A DNA stretch of 64,000 bases. It comes from an uncultured virus (IMG/VR IMGVR_UViG_3300001765_000140) (lineage: Duplodnaviria; Heunggongvirae; Uroviricota; Caudoviricetes). The position numbers and the translations under genes were made by a program. The notes beneath the pieces were generated by a model, which had not been told where the DNA came from, made no database searches, and was given only the letters and a program-made list of their open reading frames with translations. Location of the stretch: the IMG/VR virus record IMGVR_UViG_3300001765_000140; one strand, given 5' to 3'. Below, one piece after another: positions 1 to 23,446 of this stretch; positions within the stretch are counted from its first letter, which is position 1, and the number at the start of each line of letters is the position of its first letter.

Positions 1-88
1 TTAAAATATTATATGTCGTTTGTATTTTCAGTAATAATCATCCTTTATTTAATATATTTGGGGATTAGCAGTAATAAGAAGAAGTAAT

Positions 89-170
89 GCTCAGGTGGCT
101 AAGTGGGAACTGGTAGACCTGTCTGACTTAGAATCAGATAACCTTGTGGGTTCGAGTCCCACCCTGAGTA
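89..170 (+). tRNA. tRNA-Leu(TAG), atypical D region and short variable region
   Basis: Acceptor GCTCAGG/CCTGAGT, anticodon arm TCTGA-CTTAGAA-TCAGA, T arm GTGGG-TTCGAGT-CCCAC; preceded by TATATTTG at 53-60. Confidence 0.8.
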
Positions 171-188
171 CTAATTGAATTTTAAATT

Positions 189-491
189 ATGTATAGAGCA
201 GCAAAAGTAGATCGCAATCAGCCGGAAATAGTAAAAGGACTCAGAGCATTAGGATGTTCGGTTCTTATAACAAGTCAGTTGAAAAATTGCTTTGATATCC
301 TGGTTGGAAAGGATGGATGTAACATTGCCATTGAAATAAAGGACGGAGAAAAGCCTTCATGTCAAAGAAAGTTAACAGAAGGAGAGCAGAAATTTTCCGA
401 CGGATGGAGAGGTAACTACGCAGTTGCTAATGACTTACAGGAGGCAATAAAAATAGTTGAGAAAAACATTGGCAGAAATTTGGTTAATTGA
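189..491 (+). CDS. Small PD-(D/E)XK nuclease (VRR-NUC/resolvase-like)
   Basis: AKVDRNQPEIV...FDILVG...IEIKDG pattern of small phage PD-(D/E)XK nucleases. Confidence 0.65.
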   Translation: MYRAAKVDRNQPEIVKGLRALGCSVLITSQLKNCFDILVGKDGCNIAIEIKDGEKPSCQRKLTEGEQKFSDGWRGNYAVANDLQEAIKIVEKNIGRNLVN

Positions 492-510
492 TATTTTTTA
501 CTTATATTTG
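479..510 (+). promoter_or_regulatory. Bacteroidota sigma-A type promoter driving leader ORF and tRNA array
   Basis: TTTG (479-482) ... TATATTTG (503-510), matches the TTTG/TAnnTTTG consensus. Confidence 0.75.
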
Positions 511-532
511 TATCTTAATTCAGAAAATAAAA

Positions 533-631
533 ATGAAACGCACCACGATATATCATAATAGTATTTGTAATCCATCTTCAGTATGGGGCAGAGATACGTT
601 TGTAGATACAGGATTCGGGGTAGATAGATAA
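533..631 (+). CDS. Putative attenuator leader peptide MKRTTIYHNSICNPSSVWGRDTFVDTGFGVDR (32 aa)
   Basis: ATG after A-rich 5' UTR, TAA at 629-631; lies between promoter and terminator; its 3' codons contain the antiterminator strand; below the ORF-track size cut-off. Confidence 0.8.
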   Translation: MKRTTIYHNSICNPSSVWGRDTFVDTGFGVDR

Positions 632-669
632 GGCACATTTAAACGATGTGTTTGAAAAGCCCCGATTCT
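610..669 (+). promoter_or_regulatory. Antiterminator helix of putative attenuator
   Basis: AGGATTCGGGGT (610-621) can pair with GCCCCGATTCT (659-669), the 5' arm of the terminator; internal hairpin GGCACATT/GATGTGTT at 632-652. Confidence 0.7.
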
Positions 670-689
670 AGCAAGAGTTGGGGTTTTTT
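655..689 (+). terminator. Intrinsic terminator (attenuator) upstream of tRNA array
   Basis: AAAAGCCCCGATTCT-AGCA-AGAGTTGGGG followed by TTTTTT. Confidence 0.85.
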
Positions 690-720
690 GTTCTTTGACG
701 TATTGATATTACAAAATAAT

Positions 721-794
721 GGTGGCGCAGAATATTGGCGTATTTTGTCTCCCTGTCACGGAGAAGATTGAGGATTCGAATTCCTTCGTCACCG
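721..794 (+). tRNA. tRNA-Asp(GTC)
   Basis: GGTGGCG/CGTCACC acceptor, TCTCC-CTGTCAC-GGAGA anticodon arm, TTCGAAT T loop. Confidence 0.9.
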
Positions 795-796
795 CA

Positions 797-877
797 GGAG
801 AGGAAACATCGGTTCGATTCCGGCTCGCGATCATCGTTGAGATGGCTGCGGTAGTTTAGTGGTTAAAACGCCTCGTT
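797..877 (+). ncRNA. Circularly permuted tRNA mimic (T arm, closed acceptor stem, D arm; YrlA-like topology)
   Basis: GAGG-AAAC-ATCGG-TTCGATT-CCGGC, hairpin TCGCGATCATC-GTTGA-GATGGCTGCGG, TA-GTTT-AGTGGTTA-AAAC-G-CCTC; ends pair GAGG/CCTC. Confidence 0.75.
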
Positions 878-884
878 AAATAAT

Positions 885-967
885 GGAGGGTAGCGCCCAA
901 TGGTGGGTAAGCGGTTTTGAACACCGTGCCAACTACAAGGTTGAGAGTTCGATTCTTTTATCCTCCG
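885..967 (+). tRNA. tRNA-Ser(TGA)
   Basis: GGAGGGT/ATCCTCC, GCGGT-TTTGAAC-ACCGT, long variable arm, G discriminator. Confidence 0.88.
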
Positions 968-973
968 CAAAAT

Positions 974-1048
974 GGGAATGTAGCTCAGTGGTAGATAAGC
1001 AGTACGCTGTTAACGTAATGGTCGGTGGTTCGATCCCATCCATTCCCG
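974..1048 (+). tRNA. tRNA-Asn(GTT)
   Basis: GGGAATG/CATTCCC, TACG-CTGTTAA-CGTA, GGTGG-TTCGATC-CCATC. Confidence 0.9.
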
Positions 1049-1119
1049 CGGATTTGGTTATCACTAAACATATTTAAGGAAGTGAAAAGCAGCGCAACAG
1101 TGCGATATCTGTTGCTCAT

Positions 1120-1196
1120 GTTCTTTTAGCTCAGCCTGGTAGAGCAACCGCCTGATACGCGGGAGGTCGGGAGTTCAAATCTCTCATGGAACACCA
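1120..1196 (+). tRNA. tRNA-Ile(GAT)
   Basis: CCGC-CTGATAC-GCGG anticodon arm, canonical D/T arms, encoded CCA. Confidence 0.9.
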
Positions 1197-1197
1197 A

Positions 1198-1276
1198 GGG
1201 TAAGTCTCTGAGAAATGAATGTATGTGGGGTCGGTAATTCAAACTCTACGTATTCTTTATCGGGTAATGACTGCCC
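1198..1276 (+). ncRNA. Rod-like hairpin RNA of unknown function within tRNA array
   Basis: Nested pairings GGGTAAGTC/GACTGCCC, TCTGAGAAA/TTTATCGGG, GAATGTATGTGGGGT/ACTCTACGTATTC with many G-U pairs. Confidence 0.5.
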
Positions 1277-1286
1277 GCGTAATAAT

Positions 1287-1360
1287 GGATTGATAGCTCA
1301 GTTGGTAGTAGCGCCTCCCTGAAGAGGAGGAGGTCGGTGGTTCAAATCCATCTCATTCCA
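1287..1360 (+). tRNA. tRNA-Phe(GAA)
   Basis: CCTCC-CTGAAGA-GGAGG anticodon arm, GGTGG-TTCAAAT-CCATC. Confidence 0.9.
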
Positions 1361-1366
1361 CAAAAT

Positions 1367-1438
1367 GCAAGGTATAGCTTAATTGGTAAAGCGAGACCCT
1401 TCCAAGGTCAGGACGCGGTTCGAATCCGATACTTTGCT
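1367..1438 (+). tRNA. tRNA-Gly(TCC), apparent 8-bp acceptor and shortened T stem
   Basis: GCAAGGTA/TACTTTGC, GACC-CTTCCAA-GGTC, CGG-TTCGAAT-CCG, U discriminator. Confidence 0.82.
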
Positions 1439-1443
1439 CTAAT

Positions 1444-1517
1444 GCCCTTTTAGCTCAGCCTGGCAGAGCTACTCCCTCTTAAGGAGAAGGTCGGTGGTTC
1501 AAATCCATCAAGGGGCA
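1444..1517 (+). tRNA. tRNA-Lys(CTT)
   Basis: GCCCTTT/AAGGGGC, CTCC-CTCTTAA-GGAG. Confidence 0.92.
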
Positions 1518-1521
1518 CAAT

Positions 1522-1587
1522 GGGAGACGATTGGATCGTTGGATTGGCGTAACGTCGGTCGTGGAGTTAATGGACTGACTCCATCCC
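1522..1587 (+). ncRNA. Four-way-junction structured RNA (non-tRNA) within tRNA array
   Basis: Closing GGGA/TCCC plus hairpins GACGAT-TGG-ATCGTT, GATTGGCG-TAA-CGTCGGTC, GGAGTTA-ATGGAC-TGACTCC. Confidence 0.55.
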
Positions 1588-1599
1588 TGAGGCAATAAT

Positions 1600-1672
1600 C
1601 TCTTCGTAGCTCCAGAGGTAGAGCTGCTCCCTTTTAAGGAGAGGGTCGGTGGTTCGAATCCATCCGGAGAGA
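1600..1672 (+). tRNA. tRNA-Lys(TTT)
   Basis: CTCTTCG/CGGAGAG, CTCC-CTTTTAA-GGAG. Confidence 0.92.
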
Positions 1673-1677
1673 CACAT

Positions 1678-1750
1678 GCGCTTGTAGCTCAATGGATAGA
1701 GCGTGAAGCTACGAACTTTGAGGTTGGGGGTTCGAGTCCCTCCTAGCGTA
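1678..1750 (+). tRNA. tRNA-Arg(ACG)
   Basis: TGAAG-CTACGAA-CTTTG, AATGGATA D loop. Confidence 0.92.
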
Positions 1751-1756
1751 CTAAAT

Positions 1757-1829
1757 GCGTGATTAGTTCAGTTGGTAGAATAGCGCTCTCCAAAAGCGAA
1801 GGTCGGTGGTTCGAATCCATCATTGCGTG
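1757..1829 (+). tRNA. tRNA-Trp(CCA)
   Basis: GCGTGAT/ATTGCGT, CGCT-CTCCAAA-AGCG, G discriminator. Confidence 0.92.
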
Positions 1830-1835
1830 CAAAAC

Positions 1836-1907
1836 GCTTCTTTATTTCAGTGGAAGAATGCTTCCCTTACATGGAAGAGGTCGGGAGTTCGAATCTCTCA
1901 AGAAGCA
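1836..1907 (+). tRNA. tRNA-Val(TAC)
   Basis: GCTTCTT/AAGAAGC, CTTCC-CTTACAT-GGAAG. Confidence 0.9.
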
Positions 1908-1913
1908 CTTCAT

Positions 1914-1986
1914 GTCTCCGTAGTTCAGCGAATAGAACATCGCTCTTCTAAGGCGAGTGTCGGGGGTTTGATTCCCTCCGGAGATA
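1914..1986 (+). tRNA. tRNA-Arg(TCT)
   Basis: GTCTCCG/CGGAGAT, TCGCT-CTTCTAA-GGCGA. Confidence 0.88.
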
Positions 1987-1992
1987 CTACAC

Positions 1993-2066
1993 TTGCCCTT
2001 GGCGCAATTCGGTAGCGCAGCTCGCTCATAACGAGAAGGTTGTAGGATCATACCCTGCAGGGCAAA
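1993..2066 (+). tRNA. tRNA with CAT anticodon (Met; Ile2 not excluded)
   Basis: TTGCCCT/AGGGCAA, CTCG-CTCATAA-CGAG, atypical T loop ATCATAC. Confidence 0.85.
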
Positions 2067-2072
2067 CTAAAC

Positions 2073-2140
2073 GGGATAGACTCAGGGAACGGACGAGTCT
2101 GTAAAACTTCAGCCAGGGGCTTCGAATGCCTCCTATCCCA
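2073..2140 (+). tRNA. tRNA-Tyr(GTA), reduced D arm and short variable region
   Basis: GGGATAG/CTATCCC, GAGT-CTGTAAA-ACTT, GGGGC-TTCGAAT-GCCTC; only 68 nt. Confidence 0.75.
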
Positions 2141-2150
2141 CAATCAACAC

Positions 2151-2222
2151 GGTGTTTGTAGCTCAATGGTAGAGTGCCTGACTGTGAATCAGGAGACGGC
2201 AGATCGATACTGCTCTTACACC
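2151..2222 (+). tRNA. tRNA-His(GTG)
   Basis: G-1:C73 pair, CCTGA-CTGTGAA-TCAGG, T loop ATCGATA. Confidence 0.88.
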
Positions 2223-2225
2223 CAA

Positions 2226-2364
2226 CATCGGCAGTCGTAAGTGATGCTCCGATATTCCGAAGGACTATATAGCGGGTCAGGCAAGACAAATACCGTTTTA
2301 TAGCCTCAGAGATATCATTAACCTGGAATGGGCAGGAGAATGCGGTAGAATTCCGCACCGATGA
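2226..2364 (+). ncRNA. tRNA-like RNA with ~84-nt structured insert replacing the anticodon loop
   Basis: Acceptor-like CATCGG/CCGATG, T arm TGCGG-TAGAATT-CCGCA, CTCC/GGAG stem enclosing helix CTATATAGCGG/CCGTTTTATAG. Confidence 0.55.
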
Positions 2365-2372
2365 AAACATAA

Positions 2373-2448
2373 CGAGTAGTTCCTGCAGCTGGCTATACGG
2401 GCTTGACCTGGAATCAAGTGTTCGGGGGTTCGATTCCCTCCTACTCGA
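2373..2448 (+). tRNA. tRNA-Pro(TGG), C33/A37 variant
   Basis: CGAGTAG/CTACTCG with C1-G72 and A73, CTTGA-CCTGGAA-TCAAG. Confidence 0.8.
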
Positions 2449-2454
2449 CTAAAT

Positions 2455-2526
2455 GCTTCTCAAACATAGTTGGCGATGTGCTAGCCTTGTAAGCTTGAAA
2501 GATGGGTTCGATTCCTATGAGAAGCT
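2455..2526 (+). tRNA. tRNA-Thr(TGT)
   Basis: GCTTCTC/GAGAAGC, AGC-CTTGTAA-GCT, TTCGATT T loop. Confidence 0.88.
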
Positions 2527-2532
2527 CTATAT

Positions 2533-2607
2533 GCAACTGTGTCTGAGTGGCTTAGGTGTCGGTCTGCAAAACCGATTACATTGGTTCAATTCCAATCAGT
2601 TGCTCCA
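2533..2607 (+). tRNA. tRNA-Cys(GCA)
   Basis: GCAACTG/CAGTTGC, TCGGT-CTGCAAA-ACCGA, U73 and encoded CCA. Confidence 0.93.
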
Positions 2608-2609
2608 AT

Positions 2610-2692
2610 GGAGGTTTGGCGTAATGGTAGCGCAGCAGTTTGCTAAACTGTCCGTCAGAAATGGCGTATGAGTTCGATCCTCGTATCCTCCG
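2610..2692 (+). tRNA. tRNA-Ser(GCT)
   Basis: GCAGT-TTGCTAA-ACTGT, long variable arm, G discriminator. Confidence 0.9.
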
Positions 2693-2703
2693 CTAAAATA
2701 AAT

Positions 2704-2734
2704 TTTGTAATGTCAATATTTATTCGTATATTTG
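2704..2734 (+). promoter_or_regulatory. Bacteroidota-type promoter
   Basis: TTTG ... TATATTTG upstream of the 2753 ORF. Confidence 0.7.
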
Positions 2735-2752
2735 TTTTAAATATATACTGAT

Positions 2753-3517
2753 ATGTCACTAGCATCTCGTGGATCAAAAACGATTACAGGTGGAATTGAA
2801 GTATCCATCCAAGATCAGACAAGCGATATAGTTGATCTTTACTTACGTAGGGACTTGGGGAGTCTATCCCTATCGTCAACAAAGGCAATCAATGATAATG
2901 TTTTAAATGTAGTAAGCGCAGCAGGAGTTGTTGCTGGTAATATGGTTTGCTTAAAGCAAGACGGAAGGTTTTATCAGGGAACTGTTTTGAGTGTAAATGG
3001 TAATGACATAACCCTTGATACTCCACTTGATTACGCATTTAATACACTGGCTGTGGCTCAGTATGCTGAATCTAATTTAGCAACATCATCCGGAACTATA
3101 GCAGCTCCTTATATATATTACATAACCCCTCCTAGTGGAGTTAAGTGGGATGTTACCCGCGTATTGTTTCATATTGAAGATGCTAGTACAATGGATGATG
3201 GTACTTTTGGAGGAATTGTTAAATTAACCAATGGAATAGTCCTAAGGGCAAGGGATGGATTGGCAAAGAATATATTTAATGCCAAGACTAATGGAGAATT
3301 AGCATTAAGATGTGATGAAAGAGAATATGTCACCAAGCCTCCATCCGGAACGGGATATGCAGTTAATTTCATTAGACATTTTACAGGTCAGGATAGAAAT
3401 GGGGTGGCAATTAGGCTTGACGGAAGTAAAAATGATGCGCTACAAGTGTTAGTTCAGGACAATTTAACAGGATTATCGCTGTTTTTATGCACACTACAGG
3501 GTCATGTTGTGGAATAA
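2753..3517 (+). CDS. Hypothetical protein, probably virion-associated beta-rich protein
   Basis: 254 aa ORF, T/S/G/V-rich, own promoter. Confidence 0.6.
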   Translation: MSLASRGSKTITGGIEVSIQDQTSDIVDLYLRRDLGSLSLSSTKAINDNVLNVVSAAGVVAGNMVCLKQDGRFYQGTVLSVNGNDITLDTPLDYAFNTLAVAQYAESNLATSSGTIAAPYIYYITPPSGVKWDVTRVLFHIEDASTMDDGTFGGIVKLTNGIVLRARDGLAKNIFNAKTNGELALRCDEREYVTKPPSGTGYAVNFIRHFTGQDRNGVAIRLDGSKNDALQVLVQDNLTGLSLFLCTLQGHVVE

Positions 3518-3520
3518 TTA

Positions 3521-3552
3521 TTTGGATATTACAATATTTTTTCGTATCTTTG
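3521..3552 (+). promoter_or_regulatory. Bacteroidota-type promoter
   Basis: TTTG ... TATCTTTG. Confidence 0.7.
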
Positions 3553-3595
3553 TATCCCATTCACAATGTCGTGTTTCGGGTTAACCTAAGAAATT

Positions 3596-4048
3596 ATGGG
3601 GCGTATTACAGAAATCACAAAAAAACAAGCTGTTCCTCGTATAGTCGAGAAAGCAACAGCAGACCTTCCGGCTTCTACAGTTGGTAATTTATTTACAGTT
3701 ACAGGGAAAATCCTTGTTCATCAGATTATCGGTGAGGTGACTACAATAGTTCAAACACAGGCATGTAACGCTAAACTTATTGCCAACCCTACAGTTGGTG
3801 CTGACGTTGACATGTGTGCCGTTCTTGACATAACCGCAGCTGCAGTTGGAGCAACTCTTAATATCACAGGAACTCTTGCTAACGCGATGGTTAAGACTGT
3901 TGGTGGAGCTGGTGTAGCTCAGGTTGCTCCTCTTATAGTTCATGAAGGAGCTATTCAGCTTAGCACTTCAGCAACTAATACAGGAAAAATCAAGTGGACT
4001 ATTCATTATACTCCAATTGACCAGGCTGCTACCGTTGTTGCAGCATAG
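3596..4048 (+). CDS. Hypothetical abundant structural protein (decoration/head fibre-like)
   Basis: 150 aa A/T/V-rich, capsid-gene-like codon usage, own promoter and terminator. Confidence 0.55.
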   Translation: MGRITEITKKQAVPRIVEKATADLPASTVGNLFTVTGKILVHQIIGEVTTIVQTQACNAKLIANPTVGADVDMCAVLDITAAAVGATLNITGTLANAMVKTVGGAGVAQVAPLIVHEGAIQLSTSATNTGKIKWTIHYTPIDQAATVVAA

Positions 4049-4188: not shown

Positions 4189-5400
4189 ATGATTATCAAC
4201 AACATGGCTAATGACATTGAATTTTATTTCAGTGCCACAGAAAGACAGACATACCCTAAGCTTGGATTAAGAACCAAAGTAAAAGGCGATTATGTTATTA
4301 TAACCTCCTTTAATGGTGGTTTTGCTCCGTCCGGAGACAATGCATCCCTGAGAATCAGATGGCAAGACGTAACTTCACCTACGGTAACTAGCGCTTCAAC
4401 ACTATCTGTTATTATAATGGGGTACGCTTCGGGAGTGTCATTAGGTGGTGGCGCGTCAGCCGGAGGCGGAAATAATACATACAGTACAGCTAGTAATGAT
4501 TTCATTGCTACTCCTACCGTTGGCGCTAAAACTATCACCATAACCGGACTTCCGTTTATATTGGAAGCTAAGCATGTCATTGCCGGATGGGTTAAAAAGC
4601 GTACATCAACAGGAGTAGTTTCTACCGTAGCTACAGCTAACGTGGTGGTTTCAGGAGGAGTTGTTACTCTTAGCGAAGAATCAAATAACTTTGCATCGGG
4701 AGACGAGATAATTATGACTCTAGTCGGAGCTGACAAGGCATACGATCAGGTGTTAGATAATCAATTAGTTAATGTTCAGAATCCTGACTATGCTCACACC
4801 ACATCAGTTGAAACACTGGCATCTGGAACTAACCTAGGAACTCGTGCTCAGCATACAGGTGGAGTTAATGCAGCTGCTCTTGCAACAACCGGAACTGCTT
4901 TTTCAAATGCCAACGTAGCTATTGGGTATAAGGCATACAACACAACTGATGGTAGTAATGCTACAGTAACATCTGTTTCTGCTCTAGCAATGATCGGAAC
5001 TCTTGCCGGAGGAGTTGAAAATGATTGGGATACAGGCGACTTTGCAAACCTTCCTGGCGCATCGAGATTTGAAATATCCATGGATACTTATAAGAACCTA
5101 AGTATTCATTATAAAATGACTACCGGAACTGCTGCAGATAAAATGGTTATGCAGATTTGGGGAACTAACAATGCCGCAGCTACAGTTGACGACGATACTT
5201 CATGGGTTAATCTTTCAGCTGATTTCCTTGGTTCTTTAGCCGGAGTTTCTGTTACAGGAATCGCAGCATCTTTGGAAGATATCCTGTTTATTGACATTAA
5301 CCTGACTGTTCTTAAGTTGATGGTTAAATTGGTTTCTGAGTGCTCAACAAACGGAGCGTTTTCAAATGCATACGATATTTACGTTAAAAAAGCTAGCTAA
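4189..5400 (+). CDS. Putative structural/fibre protein
   Basis: 403 aa G/T/A/S-rich ORF. Confidence 0.55.
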   Translation: MIINNMANDIEFYFSATERQTYPKLGLRTKVKGDYVIITSFNGGFAPSGDNASLRIRWQDVTSPTVTSASTLSVIIMGYASGVSLGGGASAGGGNNTYSTASNDFIATPTVGAKTITITGLPFILEAKHVIAGWVKKRTSTGVVSTVATANVVVSGGVVTLSEESNNFASGDEIIMTLVGADKAYDQVLDNQLVNVQNPDYAHTTSVETLASGTNLGTRAQHTGGVNAAALATTGTAFSNANVAIGYKAYNTTDGSNATVTSVSALAMIGTLAGGVENDWDTGDFANLPGASRFEISMDTYKNLSIHYKMTTGTAADKMVMQIWGTNNAAATVDDDTSWVNLSADFLGSLAGVSVTGIAASLEDILFIDINLTVLKLMVKLVSECSTNGAFSNAYDIYVKKAS

Positions 5401-11982: not shown

Positions 11983-12489
11983 GTGAAAGACATATATGTT
12001 AATACAACGACAAGGGATCATAAGTCTAATGAACTATCTATTCAGACAGGATTTGTACAGATGTACAACAATATCTATGCTGTAGCGTTCAATCTTAAAT
12101 ACCAATGTTCGTTGTATTTGCTTATATGGATCGTCGATGAAATGTCTGACTACAATCAGATAATACTCAATAAGGGAAATAGGTCTGAGTTTAGAAGTAG
12201 AATTAGATCGTTCAATAGAGAGTATACTGACGGGATGGTGAAGGCTGCAATCGGGGATTTAATTAATTCAGAGCTGCTTATATCGGCTAGCATGGATGGA
12301 AAAAGAGAAGCAAGTTATTTAGTAAGTCCAAAATACTTTTGGAAAACAAAAAGCCAAAAGGATAGAATAGAAACAATTCAAGCATTTCAAAACCAATTAA
12401 ATACAAAGATAAATGAAAGAGATATTATTCGATCAGGAAGCGAGACAGAAGATGCTAACCGGAGTGGAGAAGCTGAACAAAGCAGTTAG
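11983..12489 (+). CDS. RepL-like winged-helix protein
   Basis: N-terminal FVQMY, HTH-like middle, YLVSPKYFWK wing motif; position upstream of head genes as in crAss-like phages. Confidence 0.55.
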   Translation: MKDIYVNTTTRDHKSNELSIQTGFVQMYNNIYAVAFNLKYQCSLYLLIWIVDEMSDYNQIILNKGNRSEFRSRIRSFNREYTDGMVKAAIGDLINSELLISASMDGKREASYLVSPKYFWKTKSQKDRIETIQAFQNQLNTKINERDIIRSGSETEDANRSGEAEQSS

Positions 12490-14017
12490 TTCTACCCTGG
12501 GTGCTAAAGGTCGTCACGTTATTATTCAGCAAGGCAATAGCTATGCTGTAACAAAGGATGGTGTGACTGTTGCTCACAATTTTGAATTAAGTGATCCTGT
12601 TGAAAATGCTGCAGCAGCTATTGTAAAAGACGCGGCTTCTAGAACAGCGCGTGACGCGGGCGACGGAACTACAACCTCAACAGTAATTGCTCATAGCGCT
12701 ATTTCTCAGGCAATGAGACTCATATCCTCAGGAGCAAATCCTATGGACTTGAAGCGTGGCATGGATAAGGCGGTAATCGACTTCGTAAAGATAATCGACA
12801 GCCAAGCTATTCCTATTGAAACAGAGGATGATATATTTCACATTGCCACTATATCAGCTAATAACGATCCGAATATCGGACGTATGCTATCTGAGATATT
12901 TGCCAAGGTTGGAAAGAGTGGAGCAGTCAGGCTTGAAGAAACCGGAATGAATGAAACCGTTTCTGAAATCATTGAAGGATGTCAGATATCCGGCGGAATG
13001 ATGAGTCCTAACTTTATAACTAATCAGACCAAAAGGGTTGCTGACTATGTTGATCCTGTTATCTTTCTTACAGACAAGAAATTCGAAAACTCATTCAGCG
13101 AGATAATTCCGGTGCTTAAAATTGCACAGGAGTTTAAGAGACCTCTTGTAATTATCTGTGGGGGAATGGAAGGCGAGACGCTAGGAACTCTAGTAATCAA
13201 TAAGGTTCAGAAGCAGTTTCATGTTGTAGCGATAACAGCTCCTGACTTTGGGGAGAATAGAATGGAGATTCTTGATGACTTAGCAGCCATGACCGGAGCT
13301 ACTGTGATATCAGAGGCTCGTGGACTTCATATCGATCAGATGACAGCAGATCAGTTCGGCAGGGCAGATAGAGTTATTTGTTCCGATAAGCTGACGACTA
13401 TCATTGGCAGGTCAGGTTCTCAGGATAATATAGACGCCCGCGTGAATACCATCAAGCAGCAGCAAGAGGACGACACTCAGGGTAATCAGGCATGGAGATT
13501 GTCAAAGCGTATCGCGTCTCTTACAAGCGGCATTGGAGTAATCTATGTTGGCGGAAACTCTGATACTGAAATGAAGGAATCATATTATCGCCTTGAAGAT
13601 GCTTTAGCTGCTACAAGGGCTGCTTTGGATGAAGGATATCTTGCCGGAGGAGGGATTGCATATAAAAACGCATCAGTGCTCTTAAATCGATCTAAACAGG
13701 CTTCTGGAAGGAATGATGAAAAGGATGGATATGGTATAGTTTTAAAAGCCCTTATTTCTCCATTAAATACCATCGTTGAAAACTGCGGCATGAATGGAGA
13801 GGTAGTTCTGAGTAAGATATCTGATATCGAAGATATTCGTGTTGAAGGCGAGGGAGACATTGGTTATAATGCATTGAGCGGAGAATATACCAATATGATT
13901 AATGCCGGAATAATTGATCCGGTTAAGGTTATTAAATCGGCAGTTAAAAATGCAATCTCTGTAGCCGGAATGATAATCACGACAAACTGTACGATTGTAA
14001 ACGAAGTTAAAAAATAA
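12413..14017 (+). CDS. groL: Chaperonin GroEL (Cpn60)
   Basis: TLGAKGRHV, VTKDGVTVA, AGDGTTT, ATISANND, LEDALAAT, GIIDPVKV motifs; 534 aa, no GGM tail. Confidence 0.97.
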   Translation: MKEILFDQEARQKMLTGVEKLNKAVSSTLGAKGRHVIIQQGNSYAVTKDGVTVAHNFELSDPVENAAAAIVKDAASRTARDAGDGTTTSTVIAHSAISQAMRLISSGANPMDLKRGMDKAVIDFVKIIDSQAIPIETEDDIFHIATISANNDPNIGRMLSEIFAKVGKSGAVRLEETGMNETVSEIIEGCQISGGMMSPNFITNQTKRVADYVDPVIFLTDKKFENSFSEIIPVLKIAQEFKRPLVIICGGMEGETLGTLVINKVQKQFHVVAITAPDFGENRMEILDDLAAMTGATVISEARGLHIDQMTADQFGRADRVICSDKLTTIIGRSGSQDNIDARVNTIKQQQEDDTQGNQAWRLSKRIASLTSGIGVIYVGGNSDTEMKESYYRLEDALAATRAALDEGYLAGGGIAYKNASVLLNRSKQASGRNDEKDGYGIVLKALISPLNTIVENCGMNGEVVLSKISDIEDIRVEGEGDIGYNALSGEYTNMINAGIIDPVKVIKSAVKNAISVAGMIITTNCTIVNEVKK

Positions 14018-23319: not shown

Positions 23320-23407
23320 NNNNNNNNNNNNNNNNNNNNNNNNNNNNNNNNNNNNNNNNNNNNNNNNNNNNNNNNNNNNNNNNNNNNNNNNNNNNNNNNN
23401 NNNNNNN
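23320..23407. other. Assembly gap
   Basis: Run of N. Confidence 0.99.
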
Positions 23408-23446
23408 AGCTGCCGCAAAGTAGATAAATGGTTTAAAAATATAAAG

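Follow-up and report, generated by a model that had tools for sequence, protein, structure and literature searches.

The window analysed here, by which we mean the whole stretch of 64,000 nucleotides (nt) of DNA from an uncultured virus (IMG/VR record IMGVR_UViG_3300001765_000140), belongs to a tailed phage, as matches to the PHROGs terminase and portal families indicate. The nearest counterparts of its large terminase share 33-36% identity with it and come from phages of Flavobacterium, Cellulophaga, Maribacter or Tenacibaculum or from uncultured phages, which account for 112 of the 112 matching records. The plus strand of the window carries, in this order, a 100-codon open reading frame (ORF), a promoter, a 32-codon ORF referred to below as the leader, a small hairpin, an intrinsic terminator, a block of transfer RNA (tRNA) genes and a 254-codon gene (Table 1). 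An earlier reading of the same DNA (hereafter the original prediction) had taken the promoter, leader and terminator for an attenuator that senses the loss of tRNAs and gates the tRNA genes behind it. From the sequence features and predicted RNA folds described below, we propose that a ribosome-mediated (leader-peptide) transcription attenuator heads the main tRNA block, a reading to which we assign a probability of roughly 0.55. That the leader is also tuned to the set of amino acids served by the block is a more tentative proposition, to which we give somewhat less than even odds overall.

Table 1. Positions of the leader, the tRNA genes and other features, in window numbering unless contig L002 is named.
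Feature	Position	Strand	Remarks
Bacteroidota-type promoter	479-510	+	-33 element TTTG at 479-482, spacer of 20 nt, -7 element TAtaTTTG at 503-510
Leader ORF	533-631	+	32 codons, stop codon TAA at 629-631; first AUG of the predicted transcript; A-rich leader
Candidate region 1	542-548	+	pairs with 615-621
Region 2, antiterminator strand	611-621	+	leader codons 27-30; pairs with 659-669
Small hairpin	631-653	+	between stop codon and terminator; -7.4 kcal/mol; nested within the antiterminator helix
Intrinsic terminator	654-689 (653/654-689/690)	+	16-17 bp, -21.4 kcal/mol, U tract
Region 3, terminator 5' arm	654-669	+	
Terminator loop	670-673	+	
Region 4, terminator 3' arm	674-689	+	
tRNA block	721-2693	+	behind the terminator; ARAGORN and Rfam
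tRNA-Ser(UGA), weak	885-968	+	relaxed ARAGORN only; Rfam 25.6 bits against a cut-off of 29
Tyr candidate, very weak	2073-2140	+	Rfam 23.9 bits; uncalled by ARAGORN even at its laxest setting
tRNA-Pro(UGG), weak	2373-2449	+	ARAGORN only; no Rfam tRNA match
tRNA-Leu(UAG)	89-171	+	upstream of the leader, outside the gated block; ARAGORN/Rfam
Upstream tRNA group on L002 (Ala, CAU, Gln)	4262-4335, 4551-4627, 4718-4790		
100-codon ORF	189-491	+	weak, sub-threshold AHJR-like nuclease match
254-codon gene	2753-3517	+	3' flank of the tRNA block
Promoter family sites	503, 2727, 3545, 4119, 11240, 15516, 19938, 23497, ~28781, 35295, 44437	+	
Promoter family sites	61464, 63729	-	

Transcription of the leader is predicted to start near position 517, from a promoter whose -33/-7 pattern we take to be the one used for Bacteroides promoters. 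In published papers, the string TAnnTTTG occurs together with the words 'promoter' and 'Bacteroid'. An extended motif, composed of TTTG, roughly 5 nt, TCAAT, a spacer rich in T and TAtnTTTG, recurs at approximately 13 intergenic sites of the window, and a weight matrix was trained on 11 other sites of the phage with the leader site left out. This revealed that the leader site scores 33.7 bits, the best match outside the training set, versus a 99.99th percentile of 13.5 bits for the window, in agreement with the promoter claimed by the original prediction; the leader promoter truly belongs to the family of promoters shared by this phage. The leader AUG lies 22 nt past the -7 box, and this distance is 18-30 nt for most other genes of the family. 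A scan for this one promoter family found no member at 640-2720, before and inside the tRNA block, where the best matrix score was -15.9 bits, and the interval 690-720, in which an independent promoter had been named as speaking against an attenuator, is likewise free of a family member. Were the phage to use no other type of promoter, the array could be transcribed only through terminator read-through. The promoter family is strongly conserved and fronts early-looking and structural genes alike, which suggests that the host sigma factor is used throughout the phage.

The leader ORF encodes MKRTTIYHNSICNPSSVWGRDTFVDTGFGVDR and is placed such that ribosomes could translate it, as we infer they do. 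As the original prediction had stated, the peptide is made of exactly 16 distinct residues, lacks alanine (A), glutamate (E), leucine (L) and glutamine (Q) and has used all 16 residues by codon 23, with AAG absent from its codons and GGC and ATA present. Each of the 16 amino acids occurs one to four times without runs of regulatory codons, and the clustering of codons for the served amino acids that is expected of a leader-peptide attenuator is absent; the match between leader and block is one of amino-acid sets, not of codon clusters. The block itself reads Asp, Ser(UGA, weak), Asn, Ile, Phe, Gly, Lys(CUU), Lys(UUU), Arg(ACG), Trp, Val, Arg(UCU), CAU, Tyr-like (very weak), His, Pro (weak), Thr, Cys and Ser(GCU). 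ARAGORN with default settings called 17 tRNAs at 721-2693, of which 16 reach the Rfam cut-off, with 47-63 bits, and the count of 19 tRNAs made originally includes the weak additional Ser(UGA) and Tyr candidates. Inspected by eye, the Tyr candidate has good acceptor and T arms, a CU-GUA-AA loop and a D arm that is nearly missing. On solid calls the block serves 14 amino acids, to which a weak call adds proline and a very weak one tyrosine, and the claim that it serves exactly the leader's 16 stands only as far as these two calls do. The two serine tRNAs (GCU and the weak UGA) and the two arginine tRNAs (ACG and UCU) are present as described.

No tRNA for A, E, L or Q was found at 721-2693 even at lax thresholds, so the claimed absence of these four holds for the leader and the gated block; it fails for the phage as a whole, which encodes Leu, Gln and Ala tRNAs elsewhere. 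The near-identical contig L002 carries Gln(UUG), a second CAU tRNA and an Ala-like tRNA (45 bits; anticodon UGC, read by eye) less than 1 kb upstream of the window start. Between them, the two tRNA groups of the phage cover approximately 19 amino acids; Glu is the only one for which no tRNA was found, whether in the window or within 5.8 kb upstream of it. A promoter of its own for tRNA-Leu was considered and dropped, at -18.3 bits on the matrix. The gaps of the array contain tRNA-like fragments (796-884, 1050-1119, 1197-1286, 1519-1599 and 2224-2372), for example around 815-825 (a T-loop motif) and 850-868 (a stretch resembling a D arm), and several array tRNAs have nearly the same T arm; together, the fragments and shared T arms suggest duplication and decay within the array.

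The composition of the leader was compared with several null models. A, E, L and Q make up 24.3% of the residues in the phage's proteome, and on a model of that proteome the probability of missing all four in 31 residues is 1.8e-4, while that of missing them and also covering the other 15 amino acids is approximately 1e-6 (2 of 2,000,000 simulations). For an empirical null, ORFs of 32-60 codons that start with ATG were collected from 1.72 Mb of phage DNA, which gave 4068 with the leader included. All four residues are missing from 6 of these 4068 (5 of the 4067 others), and the exact 16-residue set belongs to the leader alone (0/4067); among windows taken from proteins, 1 of 11200 lacks A, E, L and Q. 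The original estimate of a chance of order 1e-4 is sound for real proteins and about tenfold too small for spurious ORFs. In a further test, the set was limited to the 15 amino acids served by default ARAGORN calls, with Tyr excluded; the leader covers the whole of this set, to which 30 of its 31 residues belong. A match as good or better, with no more than one of 31 residues outside the set and none of the 15 missing, was found in 2 of 7185 pooled short ORFs, a pool not purged of the leader, in 0 of 6021 protein windows and in approximately 1.3e-4 of 15045 windows from the six frames of the phage itself. Codon-to-anticodon matching was also tried as a test of tuning and set aside as unable to discriminate, because any ORF of the phage uses codons that its tRNAs read.

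The composition match is thus rare under every null tried, and this argues against an account in which the leader is an ordinary small gene or an untranslated leader before a leaky terminator, the block is fed through constitutive read-through or a general antitermination factor of the phage, and both the match and the antiterminator complementarity are coincidences singled out from a very large scan. We regard that account as rather unlikely. It is further disfavoured by a search with the leader peptide, which placed it in no small-protein family: among 1.84 billion representatives there were three matches, all in proteins of 454-861 residues, and PHROGs gave none. Small real ORFs do occur among the tRNAs of this phage, as exemplified at approximately 4360-4542 of L002, where an ORF whose Cys/His pattern, judged by eye, resembles a zinc ribbon separates tRNA-Ala from the CAU tRNA, and this is in keeping with an ordinary small gene.

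The intrinsic terminator of the original prediction was recovered as a hairpin with a U tract (Table 1), and the proposal that 610-621 can sequester its 5' arm was likewise upheld. In the minimum-energy fold of the truncated RNA (517-672), 611-621 pairs with 659-669, with -22.1 kcal/mol for 600-672, and once the 3' arm of the terminator is added the terminator fold beats the antiterminator (-29.2 vs -25.4). The antiterminator duplex of -17.4 kcal/mol was matched by 12 of 2000 dinucleotide shuffles, and by 4 of 1000 when the test was repeated. The corresponding p values for six other, ordinary terminators of this phage are 0.40, 0.93, 0.03, 0.46, 0.57 and 0.97. Both the strength of the antiterminator, which exceeds that of 99.4% of shuffles, and the lack of one at these six terminators are difficult to reconcile with a coincidental arrangement.

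The RNA from 517 to 700 is more structured than its shuffled counterparts (-48.3 kcal/mol, z = -3.75, 0/200). This would also be expected if the 170-nt transcript 517-690 functioned as a small RNA or as an element in RNA processing or stability, with a hairpin protecting the upstream RNA after an RNase P cut at tRNA-Asp and with an incidental ORF, and hairpins indeed lie directly before tRNA-Ala on L002 and directly 5' of tRNA-Ile at 1094-1115. We nevertheless hold such an element to be highly improbable, as the AUG is at a spacing typical of genes and as neither the composition nor the position of the antiterminator over the ORF end would be explained. No Rfam family lies on the leader strand; a cmscan of 1-3200 with E up to 1 returned only tRNA-type matches and an antisense RsaJ match, the only match in the leader, at 19.5 bits against a cut-off of 100. 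No match to the leader and riboswitch families of Rfam (T-box and the his, trp, thr and leu leaders) was found in 1-3200.

The leader stop codon ends 22 nt (about 21-22 nt) before the terminator hairpin. Li et al. 2015 (PMC4824070) state that a ribosome protects approximately 10 nt beyond its A site and that a terminator can fold when preceded by 10-15 nt or more of free RNA. With protection of approximately 10 nt and a spacing of 22 nt, a ribosome at the UAA would cover region 2 and leave the terminator free. In the attenuator that we propose, host RNA polymerase would start at the promoter and a ribosome would load at the first AUG (533). If the 32 codons were read quickly, the ribosome would park at the UAA and cover region 2, the 22 nt left free would let the hairpin at 654-689 form, and transcription would end before the tRNAs. 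If it instead stalled within codons 2-23, region 2 would be free to pair with 659-669, the terminator would not form and the tRNA genes would be transcribed. Since the leader samples every served amino acid, slow decoding of any served codon family would therefore raise the output of the block, and the switch would act as a feedback gauge of tRNA supply or as a sensor of tRNA loss. For its polarity we infer the classical logic, in which a fast ribosome means termination and a stalled ribosome means read-through. As to the biological trigger, we think it unlikely that the switch serves as an alarm for anticodon nucleases in particular.

The opposite polarity would have efficient, coupled translation block the terminator, by occlusion or by melting of the pairing between regions 1 and 2 (1:2), such that the tRNAs are made when translation is active and the untranslated RNA adopts 1:2 and the terminator (3:4) and terminates. 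The minimum-energy fold of the full-length RNA does consist of 1:2 and the terminator, and the relevant passages of PMC4824070 describe ribosomes near a stop codon as able to repress a nearby terminator, with a sequence-specific efficiency below approximately 30 bp. We nonetheless consider reversed polarity very unlikely, as the 22 nt between stop codon and hairpin exceed the 10-15 nt said to permit folding, a ribosome at the stop codon covers the antiterminator strand rather than the terminator, and the leader's sampling of the block's amino acids would be left unexplained. The 1:2 pairing also differs between the two assemblies of the locus, the window and L002, which disagree at 3 of 10108 bases. 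One of the differences, A545C in L002, changes leader codon 5 from ACG to CCG (Thr to Pro) and yields a perfect 7-bp helix between 542-548 and 615-621; the fold energy is 7.1 kcal/mol lower and the pairing is matched by 88 of 2000 shuffles. We report this variant as an observation, not as evidence of selection.

As a test of the class, a sample of 238 viral loci was fetched with two generic tRNA motifs, and tRNA blocks were defined before any leader was viewed, as at least three tRNAs with gaps of at most 400 nt and at least 350 nt of upstream sequence. This gave 54 and 53 blocks in two samples, reduced to 46 and 49 (95) without near-duplicates. A terminator-like hairpin at most 35 nt before the first tRNA was present in 4 of the 46 blocks of the first sample (0.9 expected, p = 0.012) and in 3 of the 49 of the second. 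Two of these seven were set aside as weak, L223 with a 6-bp stem and L370 with an 8-bp stem and no ORF, and the other five have stems of 10-13 bp preceded by an ATG ORF of 25-53 codons whose stop lies 20-28 nt before the stem. The ORF length, stop-to-stem distance and antiterminator p, which measures the complement to the terminator's 5' arm, are 25 codons, 24 nt and 0.013 in L186, 53 codons, 23 nt and 0.032 in L214, 28 codons, 23 nt and 0.096 in L261, 39 codons, 20 nt and 0.014 in L349, and 28 codons, 28 nt and 0.007 in L371, compared with 32 codons, 21 nt and 0.004 in the window. The complementary segment is located mid-ORF in L349; in the other four analogues it extends over the end of the ORF.

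All five analogue leaders contain every amino acid of the predefined block, with a joint chance of 1.0e-4 under the pooled short-ORF null, 2.1e-4 under the protein null and 6.9e-4 under a same-locus null. The clearest composition match among these control cassettes is that of L349 (reverse strand, block 3043-3852), in which the leader MRTINKHKHFSKSSKWFSNK... precedes tRNAs for Lys-His-Phe-Lys-Trp-Trp-Lys-His-Phe-Lys, then Arg, Ser, Asn, Asn and Ile, and in which downstream tRNAs match 18 of the 19 residues that precede the antiterminator (P = 3.5e-5, exploratory). In-set enrichment in L186 is moderate (9/17, P = 0.017, exploratory). The notion that the 20-amino-acid leader of L214 mirrors its array was rejected, because the L214 record has 14 tRNAs and not a full set. 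The window shares all four features of the class: a strong terminator at most 35 nt before the tRNAs, an ORF of 25-53 codons that stops 20-28 nt ahead of it, an antiterminator complement and coverage of the block. The cassette is a recurrent architecture. The data support full sampling of the block; leaders confined to its amino acids are not the general rule. The five analogues support an attenuator class independently of the window locus, and a cassette with full block coverage in five unrelated phages is not what a coincidental match would predict.

Several results weigh against this reading, against the attenuator as such or against its tuning to the block. One concerns the terminator of the upstream tRNA group: the Ala, CAU, Gln and Leu tRNAs and two ORFs stand behind the ordinary terminator of a 120-codon lipoprotein-like gene, which has no antiterminator (p = 0.97) and is followed by no family promoter. 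Because these tRNAs are without switch or family promoter, terminator read-through is routine in the phage, and a leaky terminator alone could feed the main block, as the coincidental account would have it. Truncated folds of shuffled leaders also sequester the terminator arm often (100 of 500), which makes this fold non-specific and leaves the strength of its duplex as the one unusual property. The 1:2 pairing is part of the minimum-energy full fold and is equalled by 1187 of 2000 shuffles, and its lack of significance is what an ordinary gene before a leaky terminator would give. The same can be said of the distance of 20-28 nt between stop codon and terminator, which also occurs in 23% of 53 generic strong terminators and whose constancy is only mildly unusual, and of the in-set enrichment, which was not seen in three of the five analogues (L214, L261 and L371; exploratory). 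Set against all downstream tRNAs of its locus, the leader of L371 matches 15 of 17 amino acids, without Cys and Arg. In sum, the tests that did not DISCRIMINATE were the 1:2 pairing, the truncated-fold antiterminator, the stop-to-terminator constancy and the in-set enrichment across analogues.

Other objections concern the match itself. The exact correspondence of 16 amino acids in leader and block depends on the weak Pro and very weak Tyr calls, the leader codons ACC and GGC are not those best read by the block's UGU and UCC anticodons, AAG is unsampled despite the Lys(CUU) tRNA, and the composition match was picked for its coincidence from a very large scan. The leader is known from a single sequence, and neither it nor the array was found beyond the same phage in viral and metagenome collections. 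The attenuator architecture of the original prediction holds up in its promoter, first AUG, antiterminator over the last codons of the ORF, stop spacing and lack of another promoter.

Relatives of the locus were sought through its neighbouring proteins. The 100-residue neighbour protein is found at 22 loci and the 254-residue family at 79 viral and 76 metagenome loci, in each case on the same contig or at loci without the array, and a 403-residue neighbour protein matched only itself. The structural pattern of the switch, searched in DNA, returned the phage itself and one chance match (L422) without tRNAs, the nearest virus record (G001) is without the leader, no diverged copy of the locus was present among the contigs searched, and the sequencing runs listed as containing the sequence include no RNA run. 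Elsewhere in the window, a full-length GroEL-type chaperonin is encoded at 12413-14017 (PHROG 5725, E = 1.6e-141), and positions 23320-23433 are 114 N in a row, reflecting either a gap in the assembly or sequence that was withheld.

Why phages carry tRNA genes is still debated, and to our knowledge the regulation of phage tRNA genes is almost unexplored. In the full-text literature searched, including PMC3082878 and with older subscription literature outside its scope, leader-peptide control of tRNA genes is not described. If the proposed attenuator is real, decoding speed would set the tRNA output of the phage, which would probably be tied to how quickly ribosomes decode the leader, and the leader could serve as a simple reporter of tRNA loss in infected cells, with tRNA-cutting defences among its causes. 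A bolder extension, which we consider doubtful, is that phages carry a widespread and so far unpublished class of 'decoding gauges', mini-genes spelled from the amino acids of a block and coupled to a terminator/antiterminator switch. Such gauges would fire spare tRNAs upon depletion of host tRNAs, for example by anticodon nucleases, and would amount to an inducible counter-defence with a direct readout of the condition of the host's tRNAs.

The leader-peptide attenuators of amino-acid operons, such as trpL, hisL, pheL and leuL and the multivalent thrL and ilvL, are the obvious comparison. The window shares with the trpL type a mini-ORF close to the promoter, antiterminator and terminator hairpins that exclude one another and, as proposed here, a decision made by the position of the ribosome. 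Unlike these attenuators, its leader has no runs of one to three regulatory amino acids, with 16 used one to four times each, and its switch would gate tRNAs rather than biosynthetic enzymes, in a phage whose host is of the Bacteroidota type; the leader shares no sequence homology with them and has no Rfam match. The nearest known broad sensor, by analogy, is the upstream ORF (uORF) of whiB7 in mycobacteria. In the sections of PMC10274678 that treat it, stalling is believed to cause antitermination, the uORF coding sequence sets what is sensed, and whiB7 is activated by the loss of many amino acids, tRNAs or tRNA synthetases. As described there, that uORF is alanine-rich and controls a transcription factor in Actinobacteria, whereas the leader of the window lacks alanine and would gate tRNAs.

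A tRNA array under conditional control is known from Anabaena sp. PCC 7120, whose L-array is characterized, in the pertinent part of PMC8421152, as supernumerary and largely induced under impaired translation. It is cellular, not of phage origin, and no leader ORF or attenuator is described for it, attenuation, leaders, terminators and small ORFs being unmentioned in the text of PMC8421152. Phage tRNAs that evade tRNA-targeting nuclease defences are documented (PMC10264068, PMC11555353), and in the portions of these papers that deal with them the subject is the tRNAs themselves, not inducible control. Evasion of this kind would explain why a phage might benefit from additional tRNAs once those of its host are cleaved; no link to a tRNA-cutting defence system was found at the window locus. 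Set beside these systems, the main tRNA block of the window would be controlled by an attenuator of known mechanism, set apart by its sampling of 16 amino acids without codon runs and its choice of tRNA genes as the target, and the logic of attenuation would extend from amino-acid supply to tRNA supply.

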